A stretch of 64,000 nt of DNA from an uncultured Actinomycetes bacterium. GTDB taxonomy: Bacteria > Actinomycetota > Actinomycetes > Mycobacteriales > Jatrophihabitantaceae. A program made the position numbers and the translations under genes. This document shows, piece by piece, positions 9,790 to 57,496 of this stretch; positions within the stretch are counted from its first letter, which is position 1; the number at the start of each line of letters is the position of its first letter. The notes beneath the pieces were generated by a model that was not told the DNA's origin, searched no databases, and was given only the letters and a program-made list of their open reading frames with translations. The stretch is from assembly GCA_963733615.1 (NCBI GenBank), contig CAVTEA010000016.1:10186-74185 (forward strand), read 5' to 3'.

Positions 9790-9813
9790 GGTGGTGATGA
9801 GCGGGCGTTACTT

Positions 9814-15729: not shown

Positions 15730-15804
15730 GATGAGTGAGTCCTTTTGCTATTGAGGGCGTGTCGCTGTTCGGAGGGGTAGGCGGAGGGCGTCGAAGATCA
15801 TTTT

Positions 15805-16625: not shown

Positions 16626-16699
16626 ACCGGGTCGACGGACCCCACGGCGATCAGTCGTGGGGCCACGACTGGGACTCGGCGTCGCTCACCCCGTTCAAG

Positions 16700-17170: not shown

Positions 17171-17187
17171 CCACGGTCGCCGGGTTG

Positions 17188-19039: not shown

Positions 19040-19202
19040 TCCTCGACGCTAACGCTCCGCCATCAGCACCGACGTCCCACCATGGGCCGACCCGCGATCC
19101 ATCCCCAGGAACGACAATGCGGGCCAGCTCCTGCACGAGAACGGCTCTGCAATCAACCGGCGGCCCGACGACAAAGCCACCCGAGCGCACCAGCGTAGAA
19201 TC

Positions 19203-19718
19203 ATGACGACAACCAGCCCATCACCCACAACCATCCAGCGCCGCTGGTCTCGCCCACTGGTCGCCGCCGCCTCGGCCGCGCTCCTGATCGGAATCATTTC
19301 CGGCGGCATCCAGTACCTGACCCGCTCTCCCGCTCATAGGCACCACTCAACCGGCACGGCCGCATGGCCCGTACACATCGTCCTGGCCGTCGCGCTGCTG
19401 ATCACCTCGCTGGCGCGCGGCTGGTCACTGCCGGCGACGCTCACCACCACCGCCGCTGCCCGGCTGCGCACCGCTGCCCGCCAGACGCCGGCACGACTCG
19501 TCCTGGCCGCACCGCTGATCGCACTCGTCCTCTACAACCTGTGGCGTGTCGGCGAGCAGGTACTGGCCGGCCTCGACCCCAACTTCACCGTCAACGCCTG
19601 GGGCGGGCCCACCTACCTCGGCGCGATGTTCTGCCACTACCTCGACGCCGCCCTGCTGACGGCTGCGGTGCTCATTCTGATCGACTGGCTGCTGCCCAAA
19701 CCGGGTCCGTCGCGGTAA
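19203..19718 (+). CDS. Hypothetical integral membrane protein (about 4 TM), divergent from the two-component system
   Basis: 171-aa ORF with alternating hydrophobic stretches (LVAAASAALLIGIISGGI, VHIVLAVALLITSL, LVLAAPLIALVLYNLW, AALLTAAVLILIDWLL). I recognise no family. Confidence 0.55.
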   Translation: MTTTSPSPTTIQRRWSRPLVAAASAALLIGIISGGIQYLTRSPAHRHHSTGTAAWPVHIVLAVALLITSLARGWSLPATLTTTAAARLRTAARQTPARLVLAAPLIALVLYNLWRVGEQVLAGLDPNFTVNAWGGPTYLGAMFCHYLDAALLTAAVLILIDWLLPKPGPSR

Positions 19719-20056
19719 CAATCAGCTCTTGAAGGTTCGGTGTCTCGCCGCGCCGGGTGAGGTCGCGCTGACGCCGAGTCGGATGGCAGATGCGTCCGAA
19801 GGTCGGACGCCTGCCTCCGATTCGGCGCAATCGATCCACCCGGACTCGTCCACGCACGAACCCAACACATACCTGGACACTCATGCTGAGACGTCGAGGG
19901 AGCCGTCGACTAGACATCTCGGCATCACACGAAGGCACAACCCGTCACCCGCAAGGCATCCGCGTTCAGGTCGGCGCTACCGCGATAGTGGGTCCGCTCG
20001 CGAAGAACTCCGATTGCAGCCTTCCCCTGCTCACCCGCAGGGCGTGTCAGATCGGG

Positions 20057-35588: not shown

Positions 35589-36680
35589 ATGGCAGATGTC
35601 GTATTCGACAAGGCGACGCGGATCTACGCAGGCGCGGACACGGCCGCGGTCGACGCGCTCGACGTGCGCGTCGAGGACGGCGAGCTCATCGTGCTGGTCG
35701 GCCCCTCCGGCTGCGGCAAGTCGACGACCCTGCGCATGCTCGCGGGTCTTGAGGGCGTCGACGACGGCACCATCCACATCGGTGGCCGCGACGTCACCCA
35801 TGTGCCGCCCAAGAGCCGCGACATCGCGATGGTGTTCCAGGACTACGCCTTGTACCCACACATGACCGTCGCGCAGAACATTGGCTTCCACCTCAAGATC
35901 GCCAAGCTGCCCAAGCAGCAGATCGCCAGTCGGGTCGCTGACGCGGCGCGGCTGCTGGACCTCACCGACTACCTCGGTCGCAAGCCGGCGAAGCTCTCCG
36001 GCGGGCAGCGGCAACGGGTTGCGATGGGTCGCGCTATCGTCCGCGAGCCCAAGGTCTTCCTGATGGACGAACCGTTGTCGAACCTCGACGCGAAACTGCG
36101 CGTCCAGACCCGCACCCAGATCGCCTCGCTCCAGCGTCGCCTGGGAGTTACGACGGTCTACGTGACACACGATCAGGTCGAGGCGATGACGCTCGGCGAT
36201 CGTGTCGCTGTGATGAAGGATGGACTCCTGCAGCAGGTCGACCGGCCACGTGTGCTGTTCGACCGGCCGGTAAACACGTTTGTCGCCGGATTCATCGGCT
36301 CACCGCCCATGAACCTCCTGCATGGCGAACTGGCCGGCGAGGACGTCCACGTCGGTGAGCTCGTGCTGCGCGTGGGCCGGCAGCAGCGGACGGCGCTTAC
36401 CAGCGGCGGAGTGGTCGTCGGTATCCGAACGGACGCTTTCACGATGGAGAGCGACGGCGATGACAAACGGGGCCTTCGCGCGATCGTGGAGCTGGTCGAG
36501 GACCTGGGGTCGGACGCCTACGCGTACTGCACGACCGACGTCGGCGGACGCGAGATCCAGGTGGCGGTTCGCGTGCATCCCGACGACGTCCCTGAACGCG
36601 GGGCCAAGGTGAGCTTGGTTTCGCAACCGCACGCCGTGCACCTGTTCGACGCGGCTACCGGCGCTCGGCTGCCCGATTGA
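35589..36680 (+). CDS. Sugar ABC transporter ATP-binding protein (MalK/UgpC/MsiK-like)
   Basis: Walker A GPSGCGKST, signature LSGGQRQRVAMGRA and Walker B FLMDEPLSNLD are present, plus a C-terminal TOBE-like regulatory domain. Confidence 0.9.
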   Translation: MADVVFDKATRIYAGADTAAVDALDVRVEDGELIVLVGPSGCGKSTTLRMLAGLEGVDDGTIHIGGRDVTHVPPKSRDIAMVFQDYALYPHMTVAQNIGFHLKIAKLPKQQIASRVADAARLLDLTDYLGRKPAKLSGGQRQRVAMGRAIVREPKVFLMDEPLSNLDAKLRVQTRTQIASLQRRLGVTTVYVTHDQVEAMTLGDRVAVMKDGLLQQVDRPRVLFDRPVNTFVAGFIGSPPMNLLHGELAGEDVHVGELVLRVGRQQRTALTSGGVVVGIRTDAFTMESDGDDKRGLRAIVELVEDLGSDAYAYCTTDVGGREIQVAVRVHPDDVPERGAKVSLVSQPHAVHLFDAATGARLPD

Positions 36681-37740
36681 TGGGTGCTCGTTCGAACCTC
36701 GTCCTTGTCGCTGCGGATCAATGGCGCGGTGACTGTCTCTCAGTGGCCGGGCACGAGGTGGTACGCACGCCCACTCTGGATCAGCTGGCGGCCCGCGGCA
36801 CGCGATTCAGCAACGCTTACAGTGCCACCCCGACCTGCATTCCGGCGCGCACGGCGCTGATGACAGGCCTCGCCCAGGAGACGCACCGGCGAGTCGGCTA
36901 CCGCGACGGCGTGCCGTTCGACTATCCGATCACGCTTGCCGGTGAGTTCCGGCGAGGTGGGCATCAGACGCGGGCGATCGGGAAGATGCACGTCTGGCCG
37001 GAGCGGGCACGCATCGGCTTTGACGACGTCGCCCTGCACGACGGATACGTCCACTTCTCGCGCCGGCGATCGCGGGCCACCGAGCTGTTCGACGACTACC
37101 TGCCCTGGCTTCGGCAGCGGGCTGGCGACGCGGCGGCGGACTACGCCGATCACGGCCTGGACTGCAACGCCATCCTCGCTCGTCCGTGGGACAAGGACGA
37201 GGCACTGCACCCGACGAACTGGGTCGTCAGCGAGGCGATCTCCTGGCTGTATCGGCGCGACGTCACCGCGCCGTTCTTCCTGTACCTGTCCTTCCATCGG
37301 CCGCACCCGCCATACGACCCGCCGCAGTGGGCCTTCGACCAATACCTCGACACGCCGCGGAGTTGCCGATTCCCGAGGACCTGGACGGCCGAAGTGTATT
37401 GCCCTTGACGCAAGGGATCCGCCCGCCGTGGCGTGAGTACCTGCACGGCGAACACACGCTGCTCGATCAATCCATGCAGTGGCTCACCGATGGCCGGGAG
37501 AAGTACGTCTGGCTGTCCGGCAGCGGCCGGGAGCAGCTGTTCGACCTCGTCGCCGACCCGGCCGAGCGCCAAGACCTCGCACTGTCACCGCAGCACGCGC
37601 ACCGGGCGAGGCCCTGGCGTTCGCGGATGGTCGAGGTGCTGAGCGGGCGCGAGGAAGGCTACGTCGTCGACGGCGACCTCGTGGCGGGTCGACCGGTGCT
37701 GGATCTGCTGTCTACGGCCGCGCCCTGGAAGCCGTCGTGA
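36677..37740 (+). pseudogene. Sulfatase (formylglycine-dependent), disrupted by a frameshift and probably an internal deletion near 37360
   Basis: ORF 36677..37408 carries the C-x-P-x-R motif (TPTCIPARTALMTG) and the sulfatase N-domain. The C-terminal part (LPIPEDLDGRSVLPL...EQLFDLVADPAERQDL) continues in another frame (ORF 37186..37740). The combined length is about 100 aa shorter than I expect for this family. Confidence 0.6.
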
Positions 37741-37748
37741 CGGCGCGC

Positions 37749-38633
37749 ATGCCGCAGAGCAGCGCACGGTTGATTGCGGTCACCGATCAGTCGATCGGGC
37801 GCATCCTCGTCTTCGACTTCGATCTTGACGGGTCGCTCGTCGAGGGTTGCCCGCCCGGGACGGTCTGGTGTTGGCAGCCGGATAGCGCCGCGTGGGGGAG
37901 GCCCTCAGACGTCCGCCTTCGGCGCGACGGATCCGGCGCGCAGTGCATGCTCGTCGCGGACTCGTACGGCCTGGCCGCAGTGGTCGGCGCGGACGGTGAG
38001 CTGCTGTGGTGTGCGGACGTCGGGCCGACCGCGAACCCGCACGCCGCCGAGCTTCTGCCCAATGGTCGGGTCGCGGTTGCGGCGAGCACGGCTGGTTGGG
38101 TACGCGTCTATGCCGGCCTGTCGGCGCCACACGACGAACGCTTCGTGGAGTTCAGGTTGCCCGGCGCGCACGGCGTCCTGTGGGATCAGGCCCGTGGTGT
38201 GCTGTGGGTGCTCGGTACGGATCGGCTCTGCAGCCTGCGGCCGAGCGGCGACGCCACCGTACTCGCGCCGCTCACCGATGACGAACTCCCCAGCCGCGGC
38301 GGTCACGATCTGCAACCGGTCTACGAGAACAGCGATCTGCTGTGGCTGACGACGTCCAGTGAGGTCTACCAGTTCTCGACGAGCGGGCGGAGCTGGTCCA
38401 CGACGTACCCGCATGCGACGTCGGCGAATCGCGCGAACGTCAAGAGCGTCGGCTCGAACCCGTTGAGCGGCGAGATCCTGCAGACGGTGCCGGCGCCCGG
38501 CGCGGTGCCCGAATGGGTGACCGACACCATCGACATCTGCGCAGCGAGCCGTCGCAGCATCCGTAGCGAAGGGCAGTTCTACAAGGCGCGCTACTGGATC
38601 GCTGACCCAGTGACGCAACACCGACCCGCGTAG
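37749..38633 (+). CDS. Uncharacterised protein, paralog A (no signal peptide; possibly beta-propeller-like)
   Basis: ATG at 37749 (alternative GTG at 37737 overlaps the sulfatase stop). It shares blocks with 38661..39674: AELLPNGRVAVAASTAGWVRVY, AHGVLWD, GGHDLQPVY, VKSVGSNPLSGEILQTVP and FYKARYW. Confidence 0.7.
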   Translation: MPQSSARLIAVTDQSIGRILVFDFDLDGSLVEGCPPGTVWCWQPDSAAWGRPSDVRLRRDGSGAQCMLVADSYGLAAVVGADGELLWCADVGPTANPHAAELLPNGRVAVAASTAGWVRVYAGLSAPHDERFVEFRLPGAHGVLWDQARGVLWVLGTDRLCSLRPSGDATVLAPLTDDELPSRGGHDLQPVYENSDLLWLTTSSEVYQFSTSGRSWSTTYPHATSANRANVKSVGSNPLSGEILQTVPAPGAVPEWVTDTIDICAASRRSIRSEGQFYKARYWIADPVTQHRPA

Positions 38634-38660
38634 CCCGCGGGAACTCGAGAAGGGACGCGA

Positions 38661-39674
38661 ATGCGAGCCGGCAGAACGATTCGGATAGGTGTCGCGCTGA
38701 TTGCGGCCGGCGTGCTGTTCGGCGTCGGAATGGACGCCGCGGTCGGCGACCCGCAGGGGAACCGGTCGCCCACGCTCGTCGCTGCGGCCGACCAGGCAAC
38801 CGGTCAGATCCTGCTGCTGGATCCGACCGTGCCCGATTGGAGCGCGGCCAACGACGCGACCGCGCTCAAGTGGGCCTGGCAACCCATCGAGGCCAATGGA
38901 TTCAGTGCCGCTGACCTGGCGAGCTGGGGACCGGCCTCGAGCGCGCGGCTGAGGCACAGTAACCAGCTGCACTCGGACGCCCTGCTTACCACGGCATCCA
39001 ATGGGTTCGTCGGGGTCGCGTCCTACCCGTCGGGTCAGCGCGTCTGGTCGACCGACGTGGGCGCACCACCGAACGCGCACTATGCCGAGCTGTTACCCAA
39101 CGGGAACGTCGCGATGGCGGCCACGACGCCCGGCTGGGTCCGGATCTACACCGCCCCGCAGGGCCCGAACTCGGCCAACTACGTTCAGTTCGACCTCGAC
39201 GCGGCGCACGCCGTGTTGTGGGATCCGAAGCTGGACGTGCTGTGGGCGGTCGGCCTGAACGACATCGTCGCGTTGAAGATCACCGGCCCGGCCGGTGACC
39301 CGAAGATCGAAGTCGTTCGGGACACGCTACTGCCCCAGGGCGGCGCACACGATGTCGAGCCGGTATATGGCAACACGGACCGGCTGTGGGTCTCGACCGG
39401 CAGCTTCGTGTACCAGTACCTCAAATCGTCTGACACGTGGTCGACGAGTTACCCGGCTGCGCGGTCGATCGACCGGCGAGGGGTGAAGAGCGTCGGCAAT
39501 GATCCGCAGACCGGTCAAGTGTTGGAGACGGTTCCGAGCGACCTCGCGAACCCGGGCAGCTGCGCCACCACGTGGTGTACCGCAACGGTCGACTTCTTCC
39601 TGCCGGACCAGACCCGAACGCGGCCCGACGCGCAGTTCTACCGCGTCGTGTGGTGGGTCGACCGGTACCAGTAG
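38661..39674 (+). CDS. Uncharacterised secreted protein, paralog B (with signal peptide)
   Basis: Signal-peptide-like N-terminus MRAGRTIRIGVALIAAGVLFGVGMDAAVG. The conserved blocks are AELLPNGNVAMAATTPGWVRIY, AHAVLWD, GGAHDVEPVY, VKSVGNDPQTGQVLETVP and FYRVVWW. Confidence 0.75.
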   Translation: MRAGRTIRIGVALIAAGVLFGVGMDAAVGDPQGNRSPTLVAAADQATGQILLLDPTVPDWSAANDATALKWAWQPIEANGFSAADLASWGPASSARLRHSNQLHSDALLTTASNGFVGVASYPSGQRVWSTDVGAPPNAHYAELLPNGNVAMAATTPGWVRIYTAPQGPNSANYVQFDLDAAHAVLWDPKLDVLWAVGLNDIVALKITGPAGDPKIEVVRDTLLPQGGAHDVEPVYGNTDRLWVSTGSFVYQYLKSSDTWSTSYPAARSIDRRGVKSVGNDPQTGQVLETVPSDLANPGSCATTWCTATVDFFLPDQTRTRPDAQFYRVVWWVDRYQ

Positions 39675-39699
39675 TCGAGAGGGCTGCGGCCGGGCGTGC

Positions 39700-40345
39700 C
39701 CCGGTCGCAGCCGAGAGGGGCGGCAACTGCTCAACACGCTGCTCATGGCGGTCGGGCGCACCGCCGGACAGCTCGTGTGCTGCTCGCTCGCCGCCTTCGT
39801 CTTTGCGCGACTCGAATTCCGGTTCAAGACCGCGCTATTCCTGCTGGTCATGTCGCTGACCATGGTCCCGGGGCAGCTGTTTCCTCGGGCCGCAGTACGA
39901 AATCATGGTGCATCTGGGCTGGACGAACACGCTGCGCGCGCTGATCCTGCCCGGCATGTTCAGCGCGCTGGGCATCTTCCTGCTCCGCCAGTTCTTCCTC
40001 GGCCTGCCGCGAGAGCTCGACGAGAGCGCGAAGCTCGACGGCTGCAACCCGTTACAGACCTACTGGTACGTGGCCCTGCCGCTGGCCCGGCCGGGCCTGA
40101 TCGCCCTCGGCATCATCACCATGGTGTGGTCGTGGAATGACTTCCTGTGGCCGCTGATCGTGAACACCGACCCGAACAAGATGACCGTCTCGGCCGGCCT
40201 CACCACGCTGCAGGGGCAGTACCAAACCAACTACCCCGTCCTGATGGCTGGTGGGCTGTTGGCCACCCTGCCGGTGATCGCCGTCTTCGCATTCCTGCAG
40301 CGGCAGTTCATCGAAGGGATCGCGACGACAGGCAACAAGGGATAA
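39700..40345 (+). pseudogene. Carbohydrate ABC transporter permease (MalG-like), N-terminally truncated with a frameshift near 39880
   Basis: LLNTLLMAVGRTAGQLVCCSLAAFVFARLEFRFKTALFLLVMSLTMVPGQL is read in one frame. YEIMVHLGWTNTLRALILPGMFSALGIFLLRQFFLGLPRELDESAKLDGC... is read in another (ORF 39905..40345). The first ~70 aa of the family are missing. Confidence 0.75.
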
Positions 40346-40483
40346 CCACGCACAGCGTCGCCGTCGGCTCTGGGTTCTACCGCGCGCCGGCCAGGTGAGC
40401 GGTCCGGCCTCTGGCGGTTGCCAGGCGCTCGCTCGGCGACGATGTCCTCCGAGGTTCGGGTGCCCCCGCACGCACGCTGCCGG

Positions 40484-41626
40484 CTATGTTCTGGCGCCGG
40501 TCTTGGTCCAGGCGCGGTCGGCGGTGAACGTCTCCAGTTCGGCGAGCGCCTCGGGCAGGTTCGCGCGGCCCAGGCCGACGCGGAAGAAGCCGCCAGGTGT
40601 GTCGAACAGGGTTCCGGGCACGAGCAGCACGCCGCGCTGCTCCAGCAACGAGCGGGTGAAGTCGCCGATCGGTATGGGCAAGCGCAGTTCGGGGAAGCAG
40701 ACGCTGCCGGCCTGCGGCTCCAGCCACCGGTAGACGTCCGGCCAGCGGGCGGCGAAATCGCGTACCAGCGCGGTGTTGGCAACGATCCGCTGCCGGCCGG
40801 CAGCGATGATCGGTTCGCTTGCTTGTACCGCGATCTTGGCCAGCACCTCGCTGGGGGCGCTGTTGCAGATCGTGGTGTAGTCCTTCGCGGCTACCAGGGC
40901 GCGGCAAAGCTGCCGGTCGCGGCATGCGATCCAGCCAAGGCGCAGCCCGGGCAGCCCATACGCTTTGGACAGCCCGGCCATGCTGATACCGCGTTCGTAC
41001 ATGTCGGCCGCGGGCGGCAGGCGATCGTCCGGGTCGTGTTCGAGGCCGCGGTAGACCTCGTCGCTGAGAAGGTAGGTGCCATTGCGTCTGGCCAGCTCGA
41101 CGATGTGCCGGAGCGCCTCGCGGGTGATCATTGCGCCCGTCGGGTTATGCGGAAAGTTGAGGTAGATCAACTTTGTCGTGGGACGCATCGCTGCGGCGAG
41201 CTCATCCACGTCCAAGGTCCACCGCGTCGACGCGTGCAGTGCCACGAGCGTGACCTCGGCTCCGATAGCGCGCGGGATCTCATAGGAGGATTGGTACGCC
41301 GGGGTCATCCCGATGAAGTGGTCACCGGGTTCCAGAATCGTGTTGGCGAGGTGGAAGATGGCCTCCTCAGGCGCGGCGAACACCACGACATCCTGTGGAT
41401 TCGCTGTCGAGTAGTGCGCCGCGACCGCCTCGCGCAGCGCGGGTGCGCCCTGCGAGTCGGTATAACCCAGCCGCAGCTCGTCCCAATCCTGCTGGGTGGC
41501 CGGGTCGGCGTACGCCAGCAGCTCGGCTACCGACATCGTCTCCGGGTCGCTGCTGCTCAACAGGAACCGAGCAGTGAACTCGTGTTCGCCGAAGTAACGC
41601 TCCAGCAGGAACTCACGAATGCGCAT
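40484..41626 (-). CDS. Class I/II PLP-dependent aminotransferase
   Basis: ATG at 41626 within chimeric track ORF 40484..42685. The start is MRIREFLLERYFGEHEF. The PLP-lysine context is SMAGLSKAYGLPGLRLGW, with NPTG upstream. Confidence 0.85.
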   Translation of the reverse strand: MRIREFLLERYFGEHEFTARFLLSSSDPETMSVAELLAYADPATQQDWDELRLGYTDSQGAPALREAVAAHYSTANPQDVVVFAAPEEAIFHLANTILEPGDHFIGMTPAYQSSYEIPRAIGAEVTLVALHASTRWTLDVDELAAAMRPTTKLIYLNFPHNPTGAMITREALRHIVELARRNGTYLLSDEVYRGLEHDPDDRLPPAADMYERGISMAGLSKAYGLPGLRLGWIACRDRQLCRALVAAKDYTTICNSAPSEVLAKIAVQASEPIIAAGRQRIVANTALVRDFAARWPDVYRWLEPQAGSVCFPELRLPIPIGDFTRSLLEQRGVLLVPGTLFDTPGGFFRVGLGRANLPEALAELETFTADRAWTKTGART

Positions 41627-42006
41627 AGCCGATCCTGCACCGGCCGAGCCAGCGCCAGCCAAGCGGGGTGCTGCCCGGGAACCTGCGAATCGCGTATTCG
41701 CAAGCAGTTGATCCTTGCTCCGTAGGTCCAGGTACGCCGGGATCGCCATCGGGCCTGGCAAGGGCCGTCGTGGTCGCGGTAGTCCCGGACGGAGCCCGGC
41801 GAGGGCGCGGCATCCAGATGCGGATGGCCCCTGGTTTGTCCTTACGCAGCAGGGTGAAACTCGACGTTCGGGTGCTCCGGCTCGGCCGGTCAGCGCCCGG
41901 ACGTGGGATGGGCGGGTCCGCTGGCTTCCGGCGTCTCGCGCATTGAAGAGCGCGCACTCTGTTCGTGGCCGGTCCCGTGGCCGCAGTTGCTTGATGGGGT
42001 GCCTGC

Positions 42007-43427
42007 TCAGACGCGTGCCAGCTGGTTCGGCGATCGGCGCAGGTAGACGAACCAGGTCAGCGCGAAGCACGCGGCATAGAATGCGATGAACGCGACGTAG
42101 GCGGCGTTGCCGTTGTGGTAGGTGAGGAACGACTGCCGGAACGCGATGTTGACGAGCACGCCGCCGAAGGCGCCGATCGCGCCGGCGATGCCGATGAGCG
42201 CGTTGGCGAGTCGGCGGGCTTCGCGCTCGGCCGTCGCGGCATCGGCGCCGGCCTCGACCTGCCGGTGGGCCTTGCTGCGGAAGATCGCCGGGATCATCTT
42301 GTACGTCGAGCCGTTGCCGATGCCGCTGAACACGAACAGCGCGATGAAGCCGACGAAGAACAGCACCAGCGACTTCTGCGTCGAGGCGATGAGCACGACA
42401 GCGGCGGACCCTGCCATGAGGACGAAGTTCCAGAACGTCGTCCGCGCGCCACCGATTCGGTCGGCCAGCCAGCCTCCCGCCGGCCGGATCAGCGAACCGA
42501 CCAGCGGGCCGAGGAAGGTCAGGTAGGCGACCTTGACGGGGTCGACGACGTGCTTGCCGCTCGCGTAGAAGTGGGCCGGGAACTGGTTCTGCAGCACCTG
42601 CCCGAACGCGAAGCCGAAGCCGATGAACGAGCCGAACGTGCCGATGTAGAGGAACGACATGACCCAGGTGTGCGGGTCGCGGCACACGTCGCGCATCGCC
42701 CGCTTGTCGTTGCTGACGTGGCGATGTTGTCCATGAACAGCGCGGCGCCGAGTGCGGCGACGACGATCAGCGGGATGTAGACGCCCAGCATCACCCGGGG
42801 GTGGCCCTTGCCGGCAGTGGCCAGCACCGCCAGGCCGACAGCTGCACCGCGGCGACGCCGAGGTTGCCGCCGCCGGCGTTGAGGCCCAGGGCCGCACCCT
42901 TGAGTCGCTGCGGGTAGAAGGAGTTGATGTTCGCCATGGACGAGGCGAAGTTGCCGCCGCCGACGCCGGCCAGCGCCGCGAGCGAACGAGCAGCGTGCCG
43001 AAGGAGACGCCCGGCTTCGAGGGCAACCGCGACGGCGATGCCGGGACGAGCAGCAGCAGCGCGCTGACGATCGTCCAGTTGCGGCCGCCGAACTTCGCGA
43101 CGGCGAACGTGTACGGCAGCCGCAGCGACGGATCCCAGCGCAGTCGGCAGCGTGGTCAGCAGGAACTTCTCCGCCGCGGCCTGCTTGGGGTCGGCGCTGA
43201 AGCCGTAGGCGGGCGTCAGGAACAGGACGAACACCGACCACAGGCTCCAGACCGAGAAGCCGATGTGCTCGGAGAAGATGCTGGACACGCAGGTTGCGGC
43301 GCGCGATTTCGGCGCCGGCGCGTTCCCAGAATGCCGGACTCTCCGGGTCCCAGATGTCGAGCCACCGGCCGCGCACGACGGGAGCCGGCGCGGCGCGCGT
43401 CGCCTGGGGGCTAACGGTCTCGGTCAT
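42007..43427 (-). pseudogene. narK: Nitrate/nitrite MFS transporter, with multiple frameshifts
   Basis: The protein is spread over three minus-strand frames (ORFs 42519..43427, 42791..43288, 42007..43026). Pieces include RWLDIWDPESPAFWERAG, SIFSEHIGFSVWSLWSVFVLFL, GGGNFASSMANINSFYPQRLKGAALGLNAGGGNLG and FLYIGTFGSFIGFGFAFGQVLQ...GNGSTYKMIPAIF. Confidence 0.8.
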
Positions 43428-43551
43428 GAGGCGGCCTCGCTGTTCGGGCCGCCGGGGTGCTCGGTCATGAGGCGGCCTCGCTGTTCGGGCCGCCGGGGTG
43501 CTCGGTCATGAGGCGGCCTCGCTGTTCGGGCCGCCGGGGTGCTCGGTCATG
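43420..43551 (-). repeat. 41-bp tandem repeat, 3 full copies plus a 9-10 nt partial copy, overlapping the narK start codon
   Basis: The unit on the minus strand is ATGACCGAGCACCCCGGCGGCCCGAACAGCGAGGCCGCCTC. Units start at 43542, 43501 and 43460, and the narK ATG is at 43427... The three copies are identical. Confidence 0.95.
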
Positions 43552-43770
43552 ACAGGTCCTTCCGCTCGGTCGTGGGCGACGCTAGGAACGGCACGTTTCG
43601 GCTGCGGGCGGGTTTCCGAGGCATCCGTGCAACGAATCCCGCACATGTCCTCGCAACTCGTGTGAGGACGCCCGGACCGCACACCCATCGGCGTGGTCGG
43701 AGAGGGCTCCGTAGCGAGGCGTTAACGTCGCTGACTCGGGCCCGGAACCATCGGTGCGGACGGTTGAGCG

Positions 43771-45853
43771 GTGCCCATCGCGACGCATTGCCCGTACTGC
43801 GCGCTGCAGTGCGGGATGGCGCTGCGCGTCGACGGCGGCGCTGTCACGGTCGAGGCGCGCGGGACTTCCCGACCAACCGCGGCGGCCTGTGCCAGAAGGG
43901 CTGGACGTCGGCCGAGCTGCTCGACTCCCCGGAGCGGCTGACGACGCCGCTGGTGCGGGCGCACGGGCGCGCCGCTCGTCCCGGCCAGCTGGGACGAGGC
44001 GCTGGACCGCGTCGCGGCGGAATCCGCGGCGGCGCAGACCGCGTACGGCGCCGACGCGGTCGCCGTCTTCGGCGGCGGCGGCCTGACCAACGAGAAGGCG
44101 TACGCGCTGGGCAAGTTCGCCCGGGTCGCGCTGCGCACGCCGAACATCGACTACAACGGCCGGTTCTGCATGTCCTCGGCGGCGGCGGCCGGTAATGCGC
44201 GCGTTCGGGGTCGACCGCGGGCTGCCGTTCCCGCTGTCGGACATCGCCCGCGGCGGACGCGATCCTGCTCGTCGGCAGCAACGCCGCCGAGACGATGCCG
44301 CCGTTCATGCGGTGGCTCGCCGAGCAGCGGGACGGCGGCGGCGCGCTGATCGTCGTCGACCCGCGGCGGACGCCGACCGCGCGGCACGGCCACGCTGCAC
44401 CTGCAGCCGACGCCCGGCACCGACCTCGCGCTGGCCAACGGCCTGCTGCACCTCGCGATCACGACCGGCCGGGTCGACGAGGCCTACATCGCGGCCGCGG
44501 ACGACGCGGCTTCGACGAGGTCCGCCACGCGGTCGCCGGGTACTGGCCGGAGCGGGTCGAGCGCGATCACCGGCGTGACCGTCGCCGAGCAGCACGCCGC
44601 CGTCGAGCTGCTGACGACGCGCGAACGCGCGATGGTGCTGACCGCGCGCGGCGCCGAGCAGCACGCGAAGGGCGACCGACACGGTGTCCGCGCTGATCAA
44701 CCTCGCGCTCGCGCTCGGCCTGCCGGGCCGGCCGAGCAGCGGCTACGGCTGCCTCACCGGCCAGGGCAACGGGCAGGGCGGGCGCGAGCACGGGCAGAAG
44801 GCCGACCAGCTGCCCGGCTATCGCGCGCATCGACGACCCGGCGGCGCGCGCGCACGTCGCCGCCGTCTGGGGCGTCGACGCCGGCCGGCCTGCCCGGGCC
44901 CGGGCCGCTCGGCGTACGAACTGCTCGATCGCGCTCGGGTACGCCCGACGGCCCGCGCGCGCTGCTGGTGATCGGCAGCAACGTCGCGGTGTCGGCGCCG
45001 TCGAGCCGGCCGGATCCGCGAACGGCTGGCCGCACTGGACTTTCTCGTGGTGTGCGACATCGTGCTGTCCGAGACGGCGGCGCTGGCCGACGTCGTGCTG
45101 CCGGTCGCGCAGTGGGCCGAGGAGAACGGCACGATGACCAACCTCGAGGGCCGGGTGCTGCTGCGGCGACGCGCCGTCGCGCCGCCGCCGGGGGTGCGCA
45201 CCGACCTGGACGTGATCAGCCGAGCTGGCCGACGGCTCGGCGCGCCGGGCGAGTGGCCAGCCGAGCCGGCGGCAGGTGTTCGACGAGCTGCGCCGCGCCA
45301 GCGCCGGCGGCCCCGCCGACTACGCCGGCATCAGCTACGAGCGGATCGCCGCCGAGGACGGCGTGTTCTGGCCGTGCCCGAGCGCCGACCATCCCGGCAC
45401 GCCGCGGCTGTTCGCCGACCGGTTCGCGACGCCGGACGGGCGGGCCCGGTTCGTCGCGGTCGAGCACCGCGCCGGCCGCCGAGGACATCGACGCCGCGTA
45501 CCCCGTCTACCTCACCACCGGCCGGGTGCTGCAGCAGTACCAGAGCGGCGCGCAGACCCGCCGGATCGAGCGCTGCGCAGCCGCAGCCCGAACCGTTCGT
45601 CGAGATGCACCCGGACCTCGCCGACCGCGCACGGCGTCGAGCGACGGCGACCTGGTGCGCGTGGTGAGCCGCCGCGGCGCGGCGGAGGGCCCGGCGCGGA
45701 TCACCGACACGATCCGCGCCGACACGGTGTTCATGCCGTTCCACTGGGGCGGCGCCGGCTCGCGCCAACCTGGTCACCAACCCCGCCCTGGACCCGATCT
45801 CGCGCATGCCCGAGTTCAAGGTGTGCGCCGTCCGGCTGGAGGCCGTCGCATGA
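43771..45853 (+). pseudogene. Assimilatory nitrate reductase catalytic subunit (molybdopterin oxidoreductase, NasA/NasC/NarB type), heavily frameshifted
   Basis: Family peptides are recovered only by hopping frames: [152 protein letters not shown] and FMPFHWGG. Confidence 0.8.
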
Positions 45854-47287
45854 CGTCGTCCGTTGTCGGCAACGGCATGGCGGGCGCCCGCTTGGTGCAG
45901 GAGCTGCGCGGCGCGGGACGGCGACCGCGCCGAGATCACCGTCGATCGGCGCCGAGCCGGCGGCGCGTACAACCGGATGCTGCTGTCGCAACGTGCTGGC
46001 CGGCACAGCCCGAGCGCGACGACATCGAGCTGGCCAGCGAGGACTGGTACGCGCGCCACGACGTGACGCTGCTGGCCGGCGTCCGCGGCCATCAGCGATC
46101 GACCGCGCGGCGCGCACGGTGCCGTACTCGACGACGGCCGCGACGTCGCCGTACAGACGTGCTCGTGCTCGCCACCGGCAGCACGCGCGGTCGCTGCCGC
46201 CGATCGCGGGGCTGTCGACGACGGGCGGCGCGCACGTCGCAGTCCTTCCGCACCCTGGACGACTGCGCGGCCATCGTCGAGCGCGCGGCGTGCGCCGCCC
46301 GCGCGGTGGTGCTCGGCGGCGGGCTGCTCGGCCTCGAGGCGGCCCGCGGGCTGGCCGGCCGCGGGCTTGCCGGTGACCGTGGTGCAGCGCGGCCGGCAGC
46401 TGATGGAGCGCCAGCTCGACGCGGGCGCCGGCGAGTGCTCGAGCCGCACCCTGCGCGAGCTCGGCGTCGAGGTGCTGACCGGCGTCGTCGCACGACGGCG
46501 GTGCGGTCGAGACCGGCGTGGCGCCTGGACGACGGCCGGCACGTGGCCGGCGACTGCTGGTGCTGTGCCTGCGGGGTGCGCCCCGACGTCGACCTCGCCC
46601 GCGACGCCGGGCTCGCCGTCGACCGCGGCGTCGTCGTCGACGACCAGCTGCGCAGCGTCAGCGACCCGGCGCATCTATCGCGATCGGCGAGTGCGCCGAG
46701 CACGCGGGCAGGTGTACGGGCTGGTCGCCCCGGCCTGGGAGCAGGCCCGTGTCGCCGGCCGACGTGCATCACCGGCCGTAGCCGCCGGCGCTACGCGGAC
46801 TCGGCATCGGTCACCCGGCTCAAGGCGACCGGCATCGAGCTGGCCGCCATGGGCGAGACGGACGCCGCCGACGCCGACGACTGTAGAAATCGTGACCTTC
46901 GTCGACGCCGCGCGCGGCATCTACCAGAAGCTGGTGCGTCCGCGACGAGCGGCTGGTCGGGGCGATCCTGCTCGGCGACACCCGCGCCGCCGGCACGGTC
47001 ACCCAGCTCTTCGACCGCGGCGCGTCGCTGCCCGGCGACCGGGCCGCGCTGCTGCTCGGCCGGCGCGACAGCGCCGCGGCCGAGCGCCGAGTCGCCCGAC
47101 CGCGCATCCCGGACGGGCGACCGTCTGCCAGTGCAACGGCGTGACGAAGGCGCGATCTGCGCCGCCTGGCAGGCCGGCGCCCGCGACGTCGCCGGCGTCG
47201 CCGAGCGCGACCCGCGCGACCACCGGCTGCGGCACCTGCCGCGACGCGGTCGGCGGCATCTGCTCGACTGGCTCGCGCGCGCGCTGA
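45850..47287 (+). pseudogene. NirB-like FAD/NAD(P)H pyridine-nucleotide-disulfide oxidoreductase with a BFD-like [2Fe-2S] tail, heavily frameshifted
   Basis: The ATG at 45850 overlaps the upstream stop (ATGA). Pieces in several frames are [75 protein letters not shown] and TTGCGTCRDAV. Confidence 0.65.
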
Positions 47288-47327
47288 TCCGCGCCGCGAT
47301 GAGCCCGCGTTGCCGAGGCCTGCCTGA

Positions 47328-49885
47328 GTGCAGAGCGAGCTGCGTCGTCGTCGGCAACGGCATGGTCGGCCAGCGGCTCGTCGAGGCGCTGCGCGACCGC
47401 GACACCGCGGCACCGTGGCGGATCACCGTGCTGGCCGAGGAGAGCCGCGCCGCGCCTACGACCGGGTCGCGCTGTCGTCGCTACTTCGACGGCGTCACGC
47501 GCGGACGACCTCGATCTCGTCGCGCGACGGCTGCTACGACAGGCCGCTACGCGCTGTACCTCGACGAGGCGGTCGCTGCGCATCGACCGGGACGGCCCGG
47601 GCCGTCACGACCGGACGCGGGCGTACGGATCGGCTACGACGCGCTGGTGCTGGCCACCGGCTCGTACCCGTTCGTCCCGCCGGTGCCCGGCCACGACCTG
47701 CCGGGCTGCTTCGTCTACCGCACCCTCGACGACCTCGACGCGATCCGGGCGGCCGCGGCGGCGGCCGCAGCGCGCACCGGGCGGCGGGCCGGCCTGGTCG
47801 TCGGCGGCGGGCTGCTCGGCCTCGAGGCGGCGCGCGCGCTGCGGCTGCTGGGCCTGTCCCCGCACGTCGTCGAGCTCGCGCCGCGGCTGATGCCGCTGCA
47901 GGTGGACGAGGGCGGCGGGCAGCTGCTGCGCCGAGCTGATCGAGGAGCTCGACGTCACCGTGCACTGCGGCACGTCGGTCGGCCGGCATCGAGCCGCGAC
48001 GGCGACCGGCTGCTGGCCACCCTGGCCAACGGCACCGAGCTCGACCTCGACCTGGTGGTGTTCTCCGCCGGCGTGCGCCCCCGCGACGAGCTCGCCCGCG
48101 ACGGCCGGACTGGCGGTCGGCGACGCGCGGCGGCGTCGTCGTCGACGACGCGTGCCGGACCGCCGACGAGCACATCTACGCGATCGGCGAGTGCGCCTGC
48201 ATCGACGGCCGCGTGTACGGCCTGGTCGGCCCGGGCTACGCGATGGCCGAGGTGGTCGCCGACCGGCTGCTCGGCGGCGCCGGCGACGTTCGCCGGCGCC
48301 GACACCGTCCACCAAGCTCAAGCTGCTCGGCGTCGACGTCGCGAGCTTCGGCGACGCGCTCGCGACCACCGAGGGCGCGCTCGAGGTCACGCTCAACGAC
48401 CCGGTCGCGCGGCAGCTACGCGAAGCTCGTCGTGTCCGACGACGCGACGACGCTGCTCGGCGGCATCCTGGTCGGCGACGCGCTCGCGGTACGCGACGCT
48501 GCGCCCGCTGGTCGGCCGGCCGCTGCCGGGCGATCCGGTCGCGATGATCGCGCCGTGCCGGCGCGGCGAGTCGGCGTCGGCGCGCTGCCCGACGACGCGC
48601 AGGTCTGCTCGTGCAACGCCGTCACGCAAGGGCGACGATCTGCGCGGCGATCGCCGAGCACGGGCCTGACCGACGTCGCCGAGCGTCAAGGCCTGCACCA
48701 GGGCCGGCACCGGCTGCGGCTCGTGCGTGCCGCTGCTCAAGACGCTGCTGGCCGAGAGCGGCGTCGCGACGAGCACGGCGCTGTGCGAGCACTTCGCGCA
48801 TACCCGGGCCGCAGCTGTTCGACATCGTCCGGGTACCGAGCGATCACGCACGTTCACCGAGCTCGTCGAGCGGCACGGCACCGGGCGCGGCTGCGACATC
48901 TGCAAGCCGGCCGTCGCCTCGATCCTGGCCAGCCTGGGCAGCGGCCACATCCTCGACGGCGAGCAGGCGGCGCTGCAGGACACCAACGACCACTTCCTGG
49001 CCAACCTGCAGCGCAACGGCACGCTACTCGGTCGTGCCGCGCATCCCGGGCGGCGAGATCACGCCGGAGAAGCTGCATCGTGATCGGCGAGGTCGCCCGC
49101 GACTTCGGCCTCTACACGAAGATCACCGGCGGGCAGCGCATCGACCTGTTCGGCGCCCGGGTCGAGCAGCTGCCCGCGATCTGGCGGCGGCTCGTCGACG
49201 CCGGCTTCGAGTCCGGCCACGCCTACGGCAAGGCGCTGCGCACGGTGAAGTCCTGCGTCGGCTCGACCTGGTGCCGCTACGGCGTGCAGGACTCGGTCGG
49301 CGCTCGCCATCGACGCTCGAGCTGCGCTACCGCGGCCTGCGCGCGCCGCACAAGATCAAGGCCGGCGGTCTCCGGCTGCGCGCGCGAGTGCGCCGAGGCC
49401 CAGAGCAAGGACGTCGGCGTGATCGCCACCGAGAACGGCTGGAACCTCTACGTCGGCGGCAACGGCGGCTTCCGGCCGCGGCACGCCGACCTGCTGCTGC
49501 ACCGACGTCGACACCGACGACGCTGGTCCGCACCATCGACCGGTTCCTGATGTTCTACATCCGCACCGCCGACCGGCTGCAGCGCACGGCGCCGTGGATC
49601 GAGTCGCTTCGGAGCGGCGGGCTGGCTCGACTACCTGCGGGCGGTGATCGTCGACGACGCGCTCGGCATCTGCGCCGAGCTCGACGCGGCGATGGCCGAG
49701 CACGTCGGCGGCTACGCGACGAGTGGGCCGGCGTGCTGGACGACCCGCAGCGGCTGGCGCCGGTTCGTCTCGTTCGTCAACGCCCCGGACACGCCCGGAC
49801 CCGAGCATCACGCTTCGTCAGCGAACGGGGCCAGCCGCGGCCCGCCCTGCCGCTGGCGGCTGGTGCCGATGACCGCCGGCCGTGA
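47328..49885 (+). pseudogene. nirB: NAD(P)H-dependent assimilatory nitrite reductase large subunit, heavily frameshifted
   Basis: Pieces in several frames are [144 protein letters not shown] and GWNLYVGGNGGFRPRHADLL. Confidence 0.8.
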
Positions 49886-50239
49886 CGACGCGACCGATCG
49901 ACGTGGGTGGCCGCGTGCCCGATCGACGCGGATGCCAGCCCGAACGCGGCGTCGCGGCGCTGGTCGACGGGCGAGCAGGTGCGCTCTGTTCCGTACCTAT
50001 GACGGGCACGCTGTACGCGCTCGGACAACCTGGACCCGTTCAGCGGTGCGTACGTGCTCTCCCGCGGCATCGTCGGCACCCGCGGCGACGTGCCGACGGT
50101 CGCATCCCCGCTGCACAAGCAGGCATTCGACCTGCGCACCGGCGTCTGCCTGGACGAGGACACCGCGTCAGCCGTTGCCGACGCACCCGGTGCGGGTGCG
50201 CCGGACGGCCGAGGTCGAGGTCCGAGCGTGCGGCACTGA
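49882..50239 (+). pseudogene. nirD: Nitrite reductase small subunit (Rieske-like NirD), frameshifted
   Basis: The GTG at 49882 overlaps the nirB stop (GTGA). Pieces are PERGVAALVDG, GTLYAL and VLSRGIVGTRGDVPTVASPLHKQAFDLRTGVCLDEDT (ORF 50054..50239), in different frames. Confidence 0.75.
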
Positions 50240-50242
50240 GCC

Positions 50243-51447
50243 GGCGATCGGAGCCGCTGGCCGGCTACACCGTCGGCATCACCGCGGCCCGGCGCCGCGA
50301 GGAGCTCGGGGCGGCGCTGGAGCGGCGCGGCGCCAAGGTCGTGTACGCGCCCGGCGATCCGCATCGTCCCGCTCGCCGACGACACCGACTGCTGGCCGCC
50401 ACCGAGCGCTGCCTGGCCGCGCCGCTCGACATCGTCGTCGCCACCACCGGGATCGGCTTCCGCGGCTGGATGGAGGCGGCCGACGCCTGGGGCCTGGCCG
50501 ACGCCGCTGTTCGAGCGCCTCGACGCGGCCACGCTGCTGGCCCGCGGGCCCAAGGCGCGCGGGGCCGTGCGGGCGGCCGGGCTGCGCGAGGCGTGGTCGC
50601 CGGAGTCCGAGTCGTGCAGCGAGGTGCTCGAGCACCTGCTGCGCCAGCCGACCTGACCGGCCGGCGCGTCGCGGTGCAACTGCACGGCGAGCCGCTGCCC
50701 GATCTCGTCGCAATCCCTCGCGGCGGCCGGCGCCGACGTGATCGAGGTGCCCGTCTACCGCTGGGTGCCGCCGGATGACATGACGCCGCTGCGCCGGCTG
50801 GTCGGCGCCGTCGCCACCCGGCAGGTCGACGCGTCGCGTTCACCAGCGCCCCGGCCGCGGCGAGCTTCCTGCACGCGGCCGACGACGAGCTCGGGCACGC
50901 CGTCGACGCGCTGCGCTCGGGCGTCGCTGGCCTGCTGCGTCGGGCCGGTGACGGCCGCGCCGCTGCAGCGCGCCGACGTCCCGGTCATCGCAGCCGGACC
51001 GGCCGCGCCTCGGGGCGCTGGTCCGCGAGATCGTCGAGCAGGTGCCGGCCCGCTGCGGACTGGTGCTGCCGGCGGCCGGCCACACGCTCGGCGTGCGCGG
51101 CCACGCGGTCGTGGTCGACGGCACGATGGTGCCGCTCGGCGCGACGGCAATGTCGCTGCTGCGCGATGCTCGCCCACCATCCCGGACAGGTCGTGTCGCG
51201 GGCGCAACTGCTCGCCGCGCTGCCGAACGACGGGCAGGACGAGCACGCCGTCGAGGTCGCCATCGGGCGGCTGCGCACCGCGCTCGGCGACCCGCGCATC
51301 GTGCAGACAGTCGTCAAGCGCGGCTATCGGCTGGCCTATGAGCCCGAGCGCGCTGGATCCTGCACCACCGACGAGGTGAACGTCGAAGCGGCGCCGGCGT
51401 ACGCCGTGTCCGCACGGCATACCTGGATTTGCCGAGCGACCAGCTGA
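50243..51447 (+). pseudogene. Uroporphyrinogen-III synthase (HemD-like) fused to a C-terminal OmpR-type winged-helix domain, frameshifted
   Basis: Pieces are LAGYTVGITAARRREELGAALERRGAKVVYAP, LDIVVATTGIGFRGWMEAADAWGL, IEVPVYRWVPPDD and the C-terminal QVVSRAQLLAALPNDGQDEHAVEVAIGRLRTALGDPRIVQTVVKRGYRLA, read in at least 4 frames. Confidence 0.7.
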
Positions 51448-51497: not shown

Positions 51498-53128
51498 GGC
51501 TCTGGCGCACTTTCGGTGGTTGGTCGGGCGTGTCGGCGGCCGGCGCGGGATCTCTTGTTGATCACGATCGTGCGTGATCGATGCGGATGTGGTGGTCGGG
51601 ACGGTCTTTTCGGGGTTGACGGCGTTGACGATCTACGGGATCGAGGACGCTGGCGAGGTGATTGTGGTGCACGCTCGCACCCGTGGCGGCGCGGTGAAAT
51701 GCCCGAGCTGCGGCACCCTCACCGGGCACGTCCACGCGTTCGGTGAGCGGGTGCCGGCGGACGTGCCTGTCGACGGACGGCGGGTGCTGGTCCGTGTTCG
51801 GGTGCGACGGATGCGCTGCCGGGCCGAGGACTGCGCGAGACAGACGTTCCGCGAACAGGTTCCTGGTGTGCTGGAGCGCTATCAACGCCGGACAGTGCGG
51901 CTGAATGCGCAACTGCGCAGCGTGGTGCGGGAGCTGGCCGGCCGCGCCGCGGCCCGGCTACTGCCGGTGATGGGCATCGTCGCGGGCAAGGACACGGCGG
52001 TGCGTGCACTGCTGGGCATCGCGCTACCTGAGCGTCCGGTGCCGCGGGTGTTGGGGATCGATGACTTCGCGCTGCGGCGCAGCCGCCAGTACGCCACGGT
52101 GGTGATCGACGCCGAAACCGGCGAGCGGATCGATGTGCTGCCCGGTCGCGGCGCCGGCGTGGTCAGCGACTGGCTACGTTCCCATCCCGGCGTCGAGGTC
52201 GTGTGCCGCGACGGGTCGAGCACCTATGCCCAAGCCGTCCGCGACGCGTTACCGAGCGCGGTGCAGGTGGCCGACCGCTGGCACCTATGGCACGGTCTCG
52301 CCGAGGCTGCGCTGAAGGAAGTCGCGGCCCACTCAGCCTGCTGGGCCGGAGCAACCGGCGTCCAGAACGGGCCACTGGCCCGCACAACGTCCGAACGCTG
52401 GCATCAGGTGCACGACCTGCTCAAGCAAGGTCACGGGCTGCTGGAGTGCTCGCGGCGGCTGAATCTGTCGCTGAACACTGTCAAGCGGTATGCCCGAGCC
52501 AGCGAACCGACTCGGATGCAGCGCGTGCCGAAATACCGCCCCACGTTGGTCGATCCCTACCGCGATCACCTCCGACAGCGGCGCGCTGAGCAGCCTGGCG
52601 TGCCCGTGACGCAGCTGCTAGCCGAGATCCGTCAGCTTGGTTACCCGGGCAGCGCGAACCTGCTGACCCGCTACCTCAACCAGGGCCGCGCCGAGGACAA
52701 GCAACAACATCTCTCACCCCGGCGCGCGGCTCGCCTGCTGCTGACCAGACCGGCCAATCTCACCGACCGGCAACGCGAGCGTCTCCACCAAATCGCCGAC
52801 GCGTGTCCCGAAATCGCCGCTGTCCGCAACCTTGTCGCCGCGTTCGCCGCGTTGCTCACACCCGAGCAGGACAATCCAGCCAGGCTGCAGGCGTGGATGG
52901 ACGCGGCACGCAGCAGCGACCTGCCGCACGTGCATTCCTTCGTCCGCGGGCTCACCCAGGACATCGAGGCCGTCAACGCCGCGCTGAGAACGCCGCACCA
53001 CAACGGCAGAACCGAGGGCGTCAACACCAGAACGAAAATGATCAAACGACAGATGTACGGCCGCGCCGGCTTCGAGCTTCTTCGACACCGAATCCTTCTC
53101 GGCTAACCACCGAAAGTGCGCCAGAGCC
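51498..53128 (+). mobile_element. ISL3-family insertion sequence, copy A
   Basis: The terminal IRs are GGCTCTGGCGCACTTTCGGTGGTT (51498) and AACCACCGAAAGTGCGCCAGAGCC (ending at 53128). They enclose an intact 510-aa transposase ORF. Confidence 0.9.
51574..53106 (+). CDS. ISL3-family transposase (copy A)
   Basis: Intact 510-aa ORF with N-terminal zinc-ribbon CPSCG...H, DDFALRRSRQYATVVIDAETGERIDVL, VADRWHLWHGL and the C-terminal HHNGRTEGVNTRTKMIKRQMYGRAGFELLRHRILL, typical of ISL3. Confidence 0.9.
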   Translation: MIDADVVVGTVFSGLTALTIYGIEDAGEVIVVHARTRGGAVKCPSCGTLTGHVHAFGERVPADVPVDGRRVLVRVRVRRMRCRAEDCARQTFREQVPGVLERYQRRTVRLNAQLRSVVRELAGRAAARLLPVMGIVAGKDTAVRALLGIALPERPVPRVLGIDDFALRRSRQYATVVIDAETGERIDVLPGRGAGVVSDWLRSHPGVEVVCRDGSSTYAQAVRDALPSAVQVADRWHLWHGLAEAALKEVAAHSACWAGATGVQNGPLARTTSERWHQVHDLLKQGHGLLECSRRLNLSLNTVKRYARASEPTRMQRVPKYRPTLVDPYRDHLRQRRAEQPGVPVTQLLAEIRQLGYPGSANLLTRYLNQGRAEDKQQHLSPRRAARLLLTRPANLTDRQRERLHQIADACPEIAAVRNLVAAFAALLTPEQDNPARLQAWMDAARSSDLPHVHSFVRGLTQDIEAVNAALRTPHHNGRTEGVNTRTKMIKRQMYGRAGFELLRHRILLG

Positions 53129-56836: not shown

Positions 56837-57490
56837 TCAGGCGGCGATCACGTTGTCATCTTGACGCACGGCACTGACAGTTTGCGCGGCGACATGCTCA
56901 TCGAGTGCGACGCGGAGCGCGGGCAGGTGGAGGTGGCCGTTGACGCGGCGGAACTGCTTGCTGGCTTCGATCATCCCGGCGGCGCACCAGCGCAGCGCCA
57001 TGTTGCCGTTCTGCCAGTTCTTCACGTTCGTGGAGTGGTCGCGGGCGATCGAGATCATCGACTCGATGCTGTTCGTGCTGCGCAGCGTTCGGGCCAACGT
57101 GGGTGACACACCCAGCCGCAGCACGGTCAGCGTCTCGGCCAGTCCTTCGCGCAGTGACGCGGCGGCGCCGGGATGGGTGCGTTCGAGTTCCTTCGCGAGC
57201 GCTTCGAGCTGTGCCTCGGCCACAATCGCGGACTCGGCGTGGTAGGCCTGCCGCATCCGCTTGGTTACGGTCGAGGCGAGATGGTCGGGCAGCTTGTCGG
57301 CCAAGTTTCTGATCTTGTGAAGTTGGCAGCGGCCGATCACCGGATGATCGAACACTCGCACGACTGCGGCCCGCAGCGCTTTGCCGCCGTCGATGCCGAC
57401 GAAGATCGGCCGGGTGGTGCCCAGGCCGCGGTCGCGCAGCCCGGTCAGCAGATCGGTGACCACGCTGGTGTTCTCGGTCGGGGGTGTCAA
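56837..57490 (-). pseudogene. IS256-family transposase, C-terminal fragment, truncated by ISL3 copy B
   Basis: Contains RPIFVGIDGGKALRAAVVRVFDHPVIGRCQLHKIRNLADKLP...RSTNSIESMISIARDHSTNVKNWQNGNMALRWCAAGM, the distal half of mutator-type transposases. The ORF begins at the ISL3 boundary. Confidence 0.75.
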
Positions 57491-57496
57491 CTGGCT

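Follow-up and report, generated by a model that had tools for sequence, protein, structure and literature searches.

A sharply bounded patch of frameshifts across an actinomycete nitrate/nitrite-assimilation cluster is very probably a local consensus error

The 64,000-nucleotide stretch of contig CAVTEA010000016.1 analysed here (hereafter the window), from an uncultured actinomycete of the Jatrophihabitantaceae, contains a cluster of six genes for nitrate and nitrite assimilation that is crossed by a dense patch of small insertions and deletions (indels). An earlier note, made from the letters alone, had described the cluster as riddled with frameshifts and had left two explanations standing, i.e., genuine decay or sequencing and assembly error. 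The features of the cluster are as follows (positions are those of the window; ORF, open reading frame).

42007..43427, minus strand: narK, nitrate/nitrite transporter of the NNP family (MFS), MFS_1 match; 5-7 frameshifts depending on the reference, all within 42720-43288, with 42007-42719 clean

42720..51169, no strand: the indel patch; ~95 frame-changing events, Poisson-like spacing, abrupt left edge

43419..43552, no strand: 3.3 perfect tandem copies (100% identical) of a 41-nt unit, between the divergent narK and nasC

43771..45853, plus strand: nasC, catalytic subunit of assimilatory nitrate reductase, a molybdopterin enzyme with an N-terminal 4Fe-4S domain; 18 frameshifts

44575..48669, plus strand: 1364-aa ORF, not a gene; spans nasC, the nasB-like gene and nirB in a GC-rich frame with few stops

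45850..47327, plus strand: nasB-like NAD(P)H flavin oxidoreductase with a BFD-type [2Fe-2S] domain; ~22 frameshifts

47299..49885, plus strand: nirB, large subunit of nitrite reductase; ~34 frameshifts, start uncertain (ATG 47299 or GTG 47328)

49882..50241, plus strand: nirD, small, Rieske-like subunit of nitrite reductase, matching Rieske_2 at positions 2-97 of 104; 5-6 frameshifts

50254..51447, plus strand: HemD-like domain fused to an OmpR-type winged-helix domain, a regulator of the NnaR type; 9 frameshifts, the last at 51169

The recovered peptides had been said to match conserved family motifs, and the frame-corrected proteins indeed give Pfam matches of full or nearly full length. Corrected NarK has 472 aa, matches MFS_1 and is 80-84% identical in amino acid sequence, varying with the alignment, to the ortholog at locus L001. 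Corrected NasC matches Molybdop_Fe4S4, Molybdopterin and Molydop_binding, each at or near full profile length, and shows at most 84% identity to proteins that their sources name assimilatory nitrate reductase. The product of the nasB-like gene, previously labelled a nirB-like oxidoreductase, gave matches to Pyr_redox_2, Rubredoxin_C and Fer2_BFD, and NirB gave the same three together with NIR_SIR_ferr and NIR_SIR. The last gene of the cluster joins HEM4 (positions 2-230 of 231) to Trans_reg_C (positions 2-77 of 77). This architecture agrees with published descriptions of NnaR, the nitrate/nitrite assimilation regulator of Streptomyces and mycobacteria, in which a uroporphyrinogen-III-synthase-like domain at the N-terminus is followed by a DNA-binding domain at the C-terminus (PMC6277429).

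The gene order and the tight couplings that the earlier note had pointed out were both recovered: the start of the nasB-like gene overlaps the nasC stop in an ATGA junction, the GTG of nirD overlaps the TGA of nirB in a GTGA junction, and the order is that of relatives such as L004. Judged by its corrected sequence, the locus belongs to the assimilatory nitrate/nitrite reduction clusters of the Actinomycetota, as NarK, NasC, NirB with NirD, and NnaR can all be recognized. The gene set and domain architectures are the same as in the nitrate/nitrite assimilation regulon of Streptomyces coelicolor and Mycobacterium smegmatis (NarK, NasA/NasC, NirBD, NnaR), and nothing substantive differs from the known actinobacterial regulon after frame correction; the cluster itself is of a known kind. 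The nearest proteins, from Jatrophihabitantaceae-like metagenome-assembled genomes (MAGs), are just 80-84% identical, and identity to the nearest ortholog, in a Jatrophihabitantaceae MAG, is ~80% and reaches 81%.

When G+C at third codon positions (GC3) is plotted, the best frame switches every 60-300 nt from ~42700 to 51400. Frame changes were counted with a custom-written, frameshift-aware protein-to-DNA aligner, using as references orthologous loci, 80 of which were taken from GTDB species representatives by searching with the clean C-terminal part of NarK. Between 42720 and 51169 (8.45 kb) we found ~95 frame-changing events, which corresponds to 1.1% per nt or ~11 per kb, with a mean spacing of 95 nt and a median of 65 nt. 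Shifts of +1 (59 events) and +2 (17) were more frequent than those of -1 (10) and -2 (4), and the counts agree across several reference orthologs. The aligner was specific, making 12 frameshift calls in 257 orthologous genes of the 80 other genomes (0.03 per kb). The patch is slightly narrower than the cluster, as no events fall in the 3'-terminal 713 nt of narK or in the final 278 nt of the regulator gene. The GC3 plot and the ortholog alignment thus agree with the earlier description of a frame change every ~60-300 nt across all six genes, and the minimum counts traced by hand, at least 15 in the nitrate reductase gene and at least 4 in narK, are exceeded by our 18 and 5-7. A GC3-frame hidden Markov model was also run as a frameshift survey of the whole window and was used solely as an upper bound for the flanks; it undercounts in the patch (34 vs. 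~95 frame changes), and its call at position 5477, outside the patch, is a false positive located at two adjacent full-length CoA-transferase genes.

The G+C and GC3 profiles also confirmed that the cluster is compositionally distinct. The cluster has 74-78% G+C, its surroundings 62-70%. G+C per kb is 0.745-0.771 over 44-51 kb (0.726 at 49-50 kb), compared with 0.58-0.71 in the rest of the window, and GC3 is 0.94-0.98 in the recovered frames of the cluster, compared with 0.77-0.86 in most flank genes. Within 42.7-51.2 kb the ORF listing gives only overlapping fragment ORFs, among them the 1364-aa ORF. The latter had been called an artefact, rightly so: its only matches are patches of Molydop_binding and Pyr_redox domains that come from three different genes, and it is a read-through artefact of a stop-poor frame. 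Exact look-up found neither this ORF nor the ORF at 50738-51379 on record.

The spectrum of the lesions was obtained from DNA alignments of each gene with six orthologs. Insertions unique to the window (77, of which 62 are of 1 nt and 11 of 2 nt) far exceed window-only deletions (15); nearly all lesions measure 1-2 nt, and the net gain is ~75 nt over the codon count required. The coefficient of variation of the spacing is 0.99, i.e., Poisson-like, as for random placement. Homopolymers are avoided, with 2 of 60 single-base insertions lying in runs of at least three as opposed to 8% of background bases. Among the inserted bases, C (29) and G (20) outnumber A (8) and T (3), roughly as in the surrounding sequence, and the ~95 sites have neither a slippery nor a common sequence context. 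The left edge of the patch is abrupt and falls inside narK (p = 3e-4 for 713 clean nt at the patch rate), at a position, 42720, without a matching step in G+C. Error density is alike (~1%) in the 0.71-GC 5' half of narK and in the genes of 0.76-0.78 GC.

The coding information beneath the lesions is well preserved. Over the 322 NasC columns that are near-invariant (at least 97% invariant in 120 intact homologs), the corrected protein keeps the consensus at 319 and departs from it at 3, one of which adjoins a frameshift junction; the same test applied to each intact homolog gave a median of 2 and a maximum of 10 differences. No in-frame stop codons occur inside the recovered gene bodies, in agreement with the earlier reading of the recovered segments, and GC3 stays at 0.94-0.98 along the recovered frames, without an AT-ward drift. 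Neither large deletions nor insertions of insertion sequences (IS) were found inside the cluster genes. The frameshift-aware alignment to orthologs that had been proposed as a check therefore shows indels dominating without an excess of substitutions, and avoiding homopolymers.

Similar patches are present in comparable assemblies. Two metagenome contigs from ENA whose names follow the Flye style, ERZ25039489 contig_192227 (L082) and ERZ25039458 contig_17066 (L083), share 76-83% protein identity with the window and carry dense frameshift patches in other genes and at other positions. In L082 the patch region is 9600-12200, with 15 frameshifts in narK, 7 in hemD and 0 in nasC; in L083 it is 14800-20570, with 17 in nasC, 18 in the nasB-like gene, 9 in nirB and 0 in hemD. 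The L083 patch (0.75-0.78 GC) is insertion-biased like that of the window, whereas the L082 patch (0.67-0.73 GC) is balanced or deletion-biased. Comparable assemblies thus show lesions of this kind at positions that are not homologous, and the 80 GTDB loci show none. Common inheritance of the lesions with L083 was considered and rejected, as NasC frameshift positions coincide about as often as chance would have it (~5 expected within ±5 residues, by a rough estimate without a formal test). A search with a NarK fragment returned mostly short NarK fragments encoded on long ENA contigs, which suggests that kilobase-scale frameshift patches are widespread in such ENA assemblies.

Independent sequence is available for the left flank. 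Two Logan contigs of run ERR11523651 are 100% identical to window positions 36168-40114 and 40085-42177 and overlap by exactly 30 nt at 40085-40114, so that the junction between the left flank and the 3' part of narK is independently supported and the flanks are accurate. One of these contigs stops at 42177, ~540 nt short of the first frameshift, and its end may mark a branch point (strain variation) in the ERR11523651 reads near the start of the island. Searches for a near-identical allele gave a best identity of 86% with a 121-aa stretch of corrected NarK spanning two frameshifts (nothing at or above 90% in the protein collection), 84% with the corrected 689-aa NasC, and 83% in a scan of genome contigs. 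A 93-aa fragment of the regulator as it stands in the window was matched exactly only on the 96,498-nt source contig (NCBI and ENA).

Taken together, we favour an unpolished or badly polished stretch of consensus, because it explains the indel spectrum, the intact coding sequence, the sharp edge and the recurrence of patches in sister assemblies. Random small indels, an intact coding sequence and clean neighbours, as expected of consensus error, are all observed here. We are confident that the patch arose by local error in the consensus of a 96.5-kb contig from a long-read metagenome, probably where read depth was low or mixed, and it is very likely not a biological feature. The source assembly was presumably of the long-read (Flye/Nanopore) type. 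Read depth in the patch was presumably low, the sole hint being that the Logan and ENA gene calls hold no near-identical NarK fragment from the patch. In the source organism, narK would lie divergent from nasC, the nasB-like gene, nirB, nirD and nnaR in an ordinary cluster, and the ~95 consensus errors, mainly spurious single-base insertions, would be confined to the 8.45-kb stretch owing to very low or mixed read support at consensus calling. Of the possible causes, we prefer poor read support over an IS-flanked accessory island, which few cells may carry; alternatively, reads from related nitrate clusters in the community may have cross-mapped. As far as can be judged from sequence, the nitrate/nitrite assimilation cluster is most probably intact in the organism. 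Of the two explanations offered previously, sequencing or assembly error is thus strongly favoured by the indel spectrum, the intact coding, the abrupt edge and the sister patches, at the expense of decay.

Errors of a related kind are known. Frameshift-causing indels at limited coverage have been documented for Nanopore assemblies and MAGs (PMC9262707), and Nanopore-only soil assemblies of this kind, made with Flye and Medaka, have been deposited in ENA (PMC12313526). Indel errors in Nanopore or PacBio assemblies and MAGs are gauged with the IDEEL score, which asks what number of predicted proteins reach full length, and corrected with tools such as proovframe or Kastor. They likewise consist of dense 1-nt indels that break up genes, leave a normal corrected translation, are met in metagenome contigs and depend on coverage (PMC9262707; PMC12007338). 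The usual residual errors of long reads, however, are homopolymer indels spread through the assembly (PMC9262707), whereas here we observe one sharply bounded 8.45-kb patch, insertion-biased and homopolymer-avoiding, in an otherwise clean contig.

Several points weigh against consensus error. The support for it is indirect, as it comes from assembled sequence and not from reads, and the technology behind the source contig had to be deduced, no paper that mentions ERR11523651, ERZ25039489 or ERZ25039458 having been found. A strong insertion bias outside homopolymers fits no textbook profile; in Nanopore consensus sequences, homopolymer deletions dominate the residual errors. Naming a sequencing platform from the error spectrum was ruled out on the same grounds. 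None of the collections searched yielded a near-identical intact allele that would prove the genes intact. Finally, two genes in the left flank themselves look disrupted. A sulfatase gene (36677-37740) is split near 37350, one frame matching Sulfatase positions 2-185 of 301 and another giving a weak match to the sulfatase C-terminal profile SGSH_C, and an ABC permease gene (39499-40345) is truncated near 39880, with 146-161 aa left and BPD_transp_1 positions 45-178 of 184 matched. The independent Logan contig L084 agrees with the window at every base of both disruptions, which may therefore be real pseudogenes rather than consensus errors.

The likeliest of the alternatives is a systematic error driven by composition, in which base-calling, polishing or short-read coverage fails because the DNA has ~77% G+C. 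The patch largely coincides with the part of the window that is highest in G+C, and the insertion-biased patch of L083 likewise lies in sequence of 0.75-0.78 GC. The density of events in the 5' half of narK, at 0.71 GC, nevertheless equals that in the 0.76-0.78-GC genes, the edge at 42720 is not a G+C step, and the events are random, tied neither to a motif nor to homopolymers. Furthermore, hemD of L083 (0.75 GC) is clean, and in L082 it is the lower-GC narK and hemD that are dirty, while nasC and nirB (0.73-0.75 GC) are clean. On the density within the patch, the position of the edge and the pattern in L082 and L083, we rejected G+C as the sole cause, and we regard a G+C-driven error as rather unlikely. 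The earlier proposal of errors in extremely GC-rich DNA accordingly holds as regards error, but its link to G+C is doubtful (equal density at 0.71 GC, an edge without a G+C step, and lower-GC dirty genes in L082).

In contrast to either kind of error, real pseudogenisation would mean that a horizontally acquired, GC-rich island is in decay through an unusual local process, mostly of single-base insertion, and that nitrate assimilation is lost. The island stands out in composition (GC3 0.94-0.98 vs. ~0.8) and borders on an ISL3 element, the collections searched yielded no near-identical copy that is intact, and two flank genes look disrupted, both disruptions being reproduced by an independent k-mer assembly. 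As in the pseudogene decay of reductive genomes, there are many frameshifts across functionally linked genes. In bacterial mutation spectra, base substitutions greatly outnumber indels, so real decay should have changed dozens of invariant residues. Instead, ~95 indels are accompanied by no excess of substitutions (3/322 NasC residues, against a control median of 2) and by no nonsense codons, and neither large deletions nor IS insertions interrupt the genes. Spontaneous bacterial indels are biased toward deletion and arise by slippage in runs, to which the 5:1 insertion bias and the avoidance of homopolymers in the patch are contrary. The patch edge in mid-gene, too, is unlike the decay seen in reductive genomes, and sister assemblies carry their patches elsewhere, whereas the 80 other genomes have none. 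The marks of a pseudogene, whether many more substitutions than indels with loss of conserved residues and nonsense codons, or a slippage spectrum concentrated in homopolymers or simple repeats in which deletions are no rarer than insertions, are thus missing. Indels without substitutions, the insertion bias, the avoidance of homopolymers and the mid-gene edge make real decay not credible, and we consider it very improbable. The previously suggested indel-dominated decay with loss of nitrate assimilation is not borne out, there being no substitution excess, no stops and no reduction in GC3.

We give marginally less weight still to the idea that the indels are real without being decay, i.e., that localised mutation or error-prone copying inserted single bases at ~1% of positions over 8.45 kb of an IS-flanked, GC-rich island with almost no substitutions, or that an unknown recoding compensates for them. 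Real indels would imply a mutational process without known bacterial precedent, which is very unlikely on the evidence. Expression of the genes through programmed ribosomal frameshifting, transcriptional slippage or RNA editing would account for the perfectly preserved coding information, but it is vanishingly improbable, because the ~95 sites share no slippery or common context, shifts go in both directions and the orthologs in 80 genomes are unshifted, whereas programmed frameshifting takes place at a single site or a few sites in a gene, on a slippery motif that is conserved and that orthologs share; we know of no such recoding system in bacteria.

It follows from consensus error that a loss of nitrate/nitrite assimilation should not be recorded for this genome or MAG, and that the 1364-aa ORF and the fragment ORFs of 42.7-51.2 kb should be kept out of protein catalogues. 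An otherwise clean long-read metagenome contig can hide a sharply bounded, kilobase-scale stretch with ~1% indel error that whole-contig quality scores miss.

The compositional distinctness of the cluster, unlike its frameshifts, is real. Its GC3 is ~0.97 vs. ~0.83 around it, and in relatives the same genes are only 0-0.035 above the G+C of their locus. This distinct composition, together with an adjoining ISL3 element, makes it plausible that the cluster is an accessory island or was acquired horizontally. No useful taxonomic signal came from the nearest homologs of the adjacent aminotransferase. In the narK/nasC intergenic region, each copy of the 41-nt repeat contains, on the narK strand, ATGACCGAG, the start of narK, as well as a mini-ORF of 14 codons that ends in an ATGA overlap; the repeat may reflect either a genuine duplication at the 5' end of narK or a stutter of the assembly within the error patch.

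Two related IS copies lie to the right of the cluster.

51525..53108, plus strand: ISL3-like IS copy with a transposase ORF of 510-514 aa, directly right of the cluster; assigned by eye

57532-59115, inverted: second ISL3-like copy, 84% identical to the first and 4.4 kb further right

Both are taken to be of the ISL3 family, by eye from the ORF translation and without a match in a protein library, and exact look-up of the transposase with seven alternative start sites found none on record. The inverted arms measure 1584 nt each, with an open frame of 514 codons in each, and enclose a 4.4-kb segment of lower G+C (0.58-0.64) with a fragment of a Mutator-family transposase at 56840-57505. This paired arrangement is reminiscent of a composite transposon, immediately next to the nitrate cluster.

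In the flanks, most genes are intact and long: an MFS transporter matches profile positions 1-346 of 347, and two CoA-transferases each match the full 366-position Pfam profile. The latter, of family III (4300-6665), form a tandem paralog pair, as do two DUF6528 proteins (37479-39674). Fragmentary IS genes occupy 14699-16752: at 14.7-15.7 kb, pieces of HTH_32 and DDE_3 (IS630-like) lie in different frames, and 15805-16752 encodes a DDE_Tnp_1 transposase.

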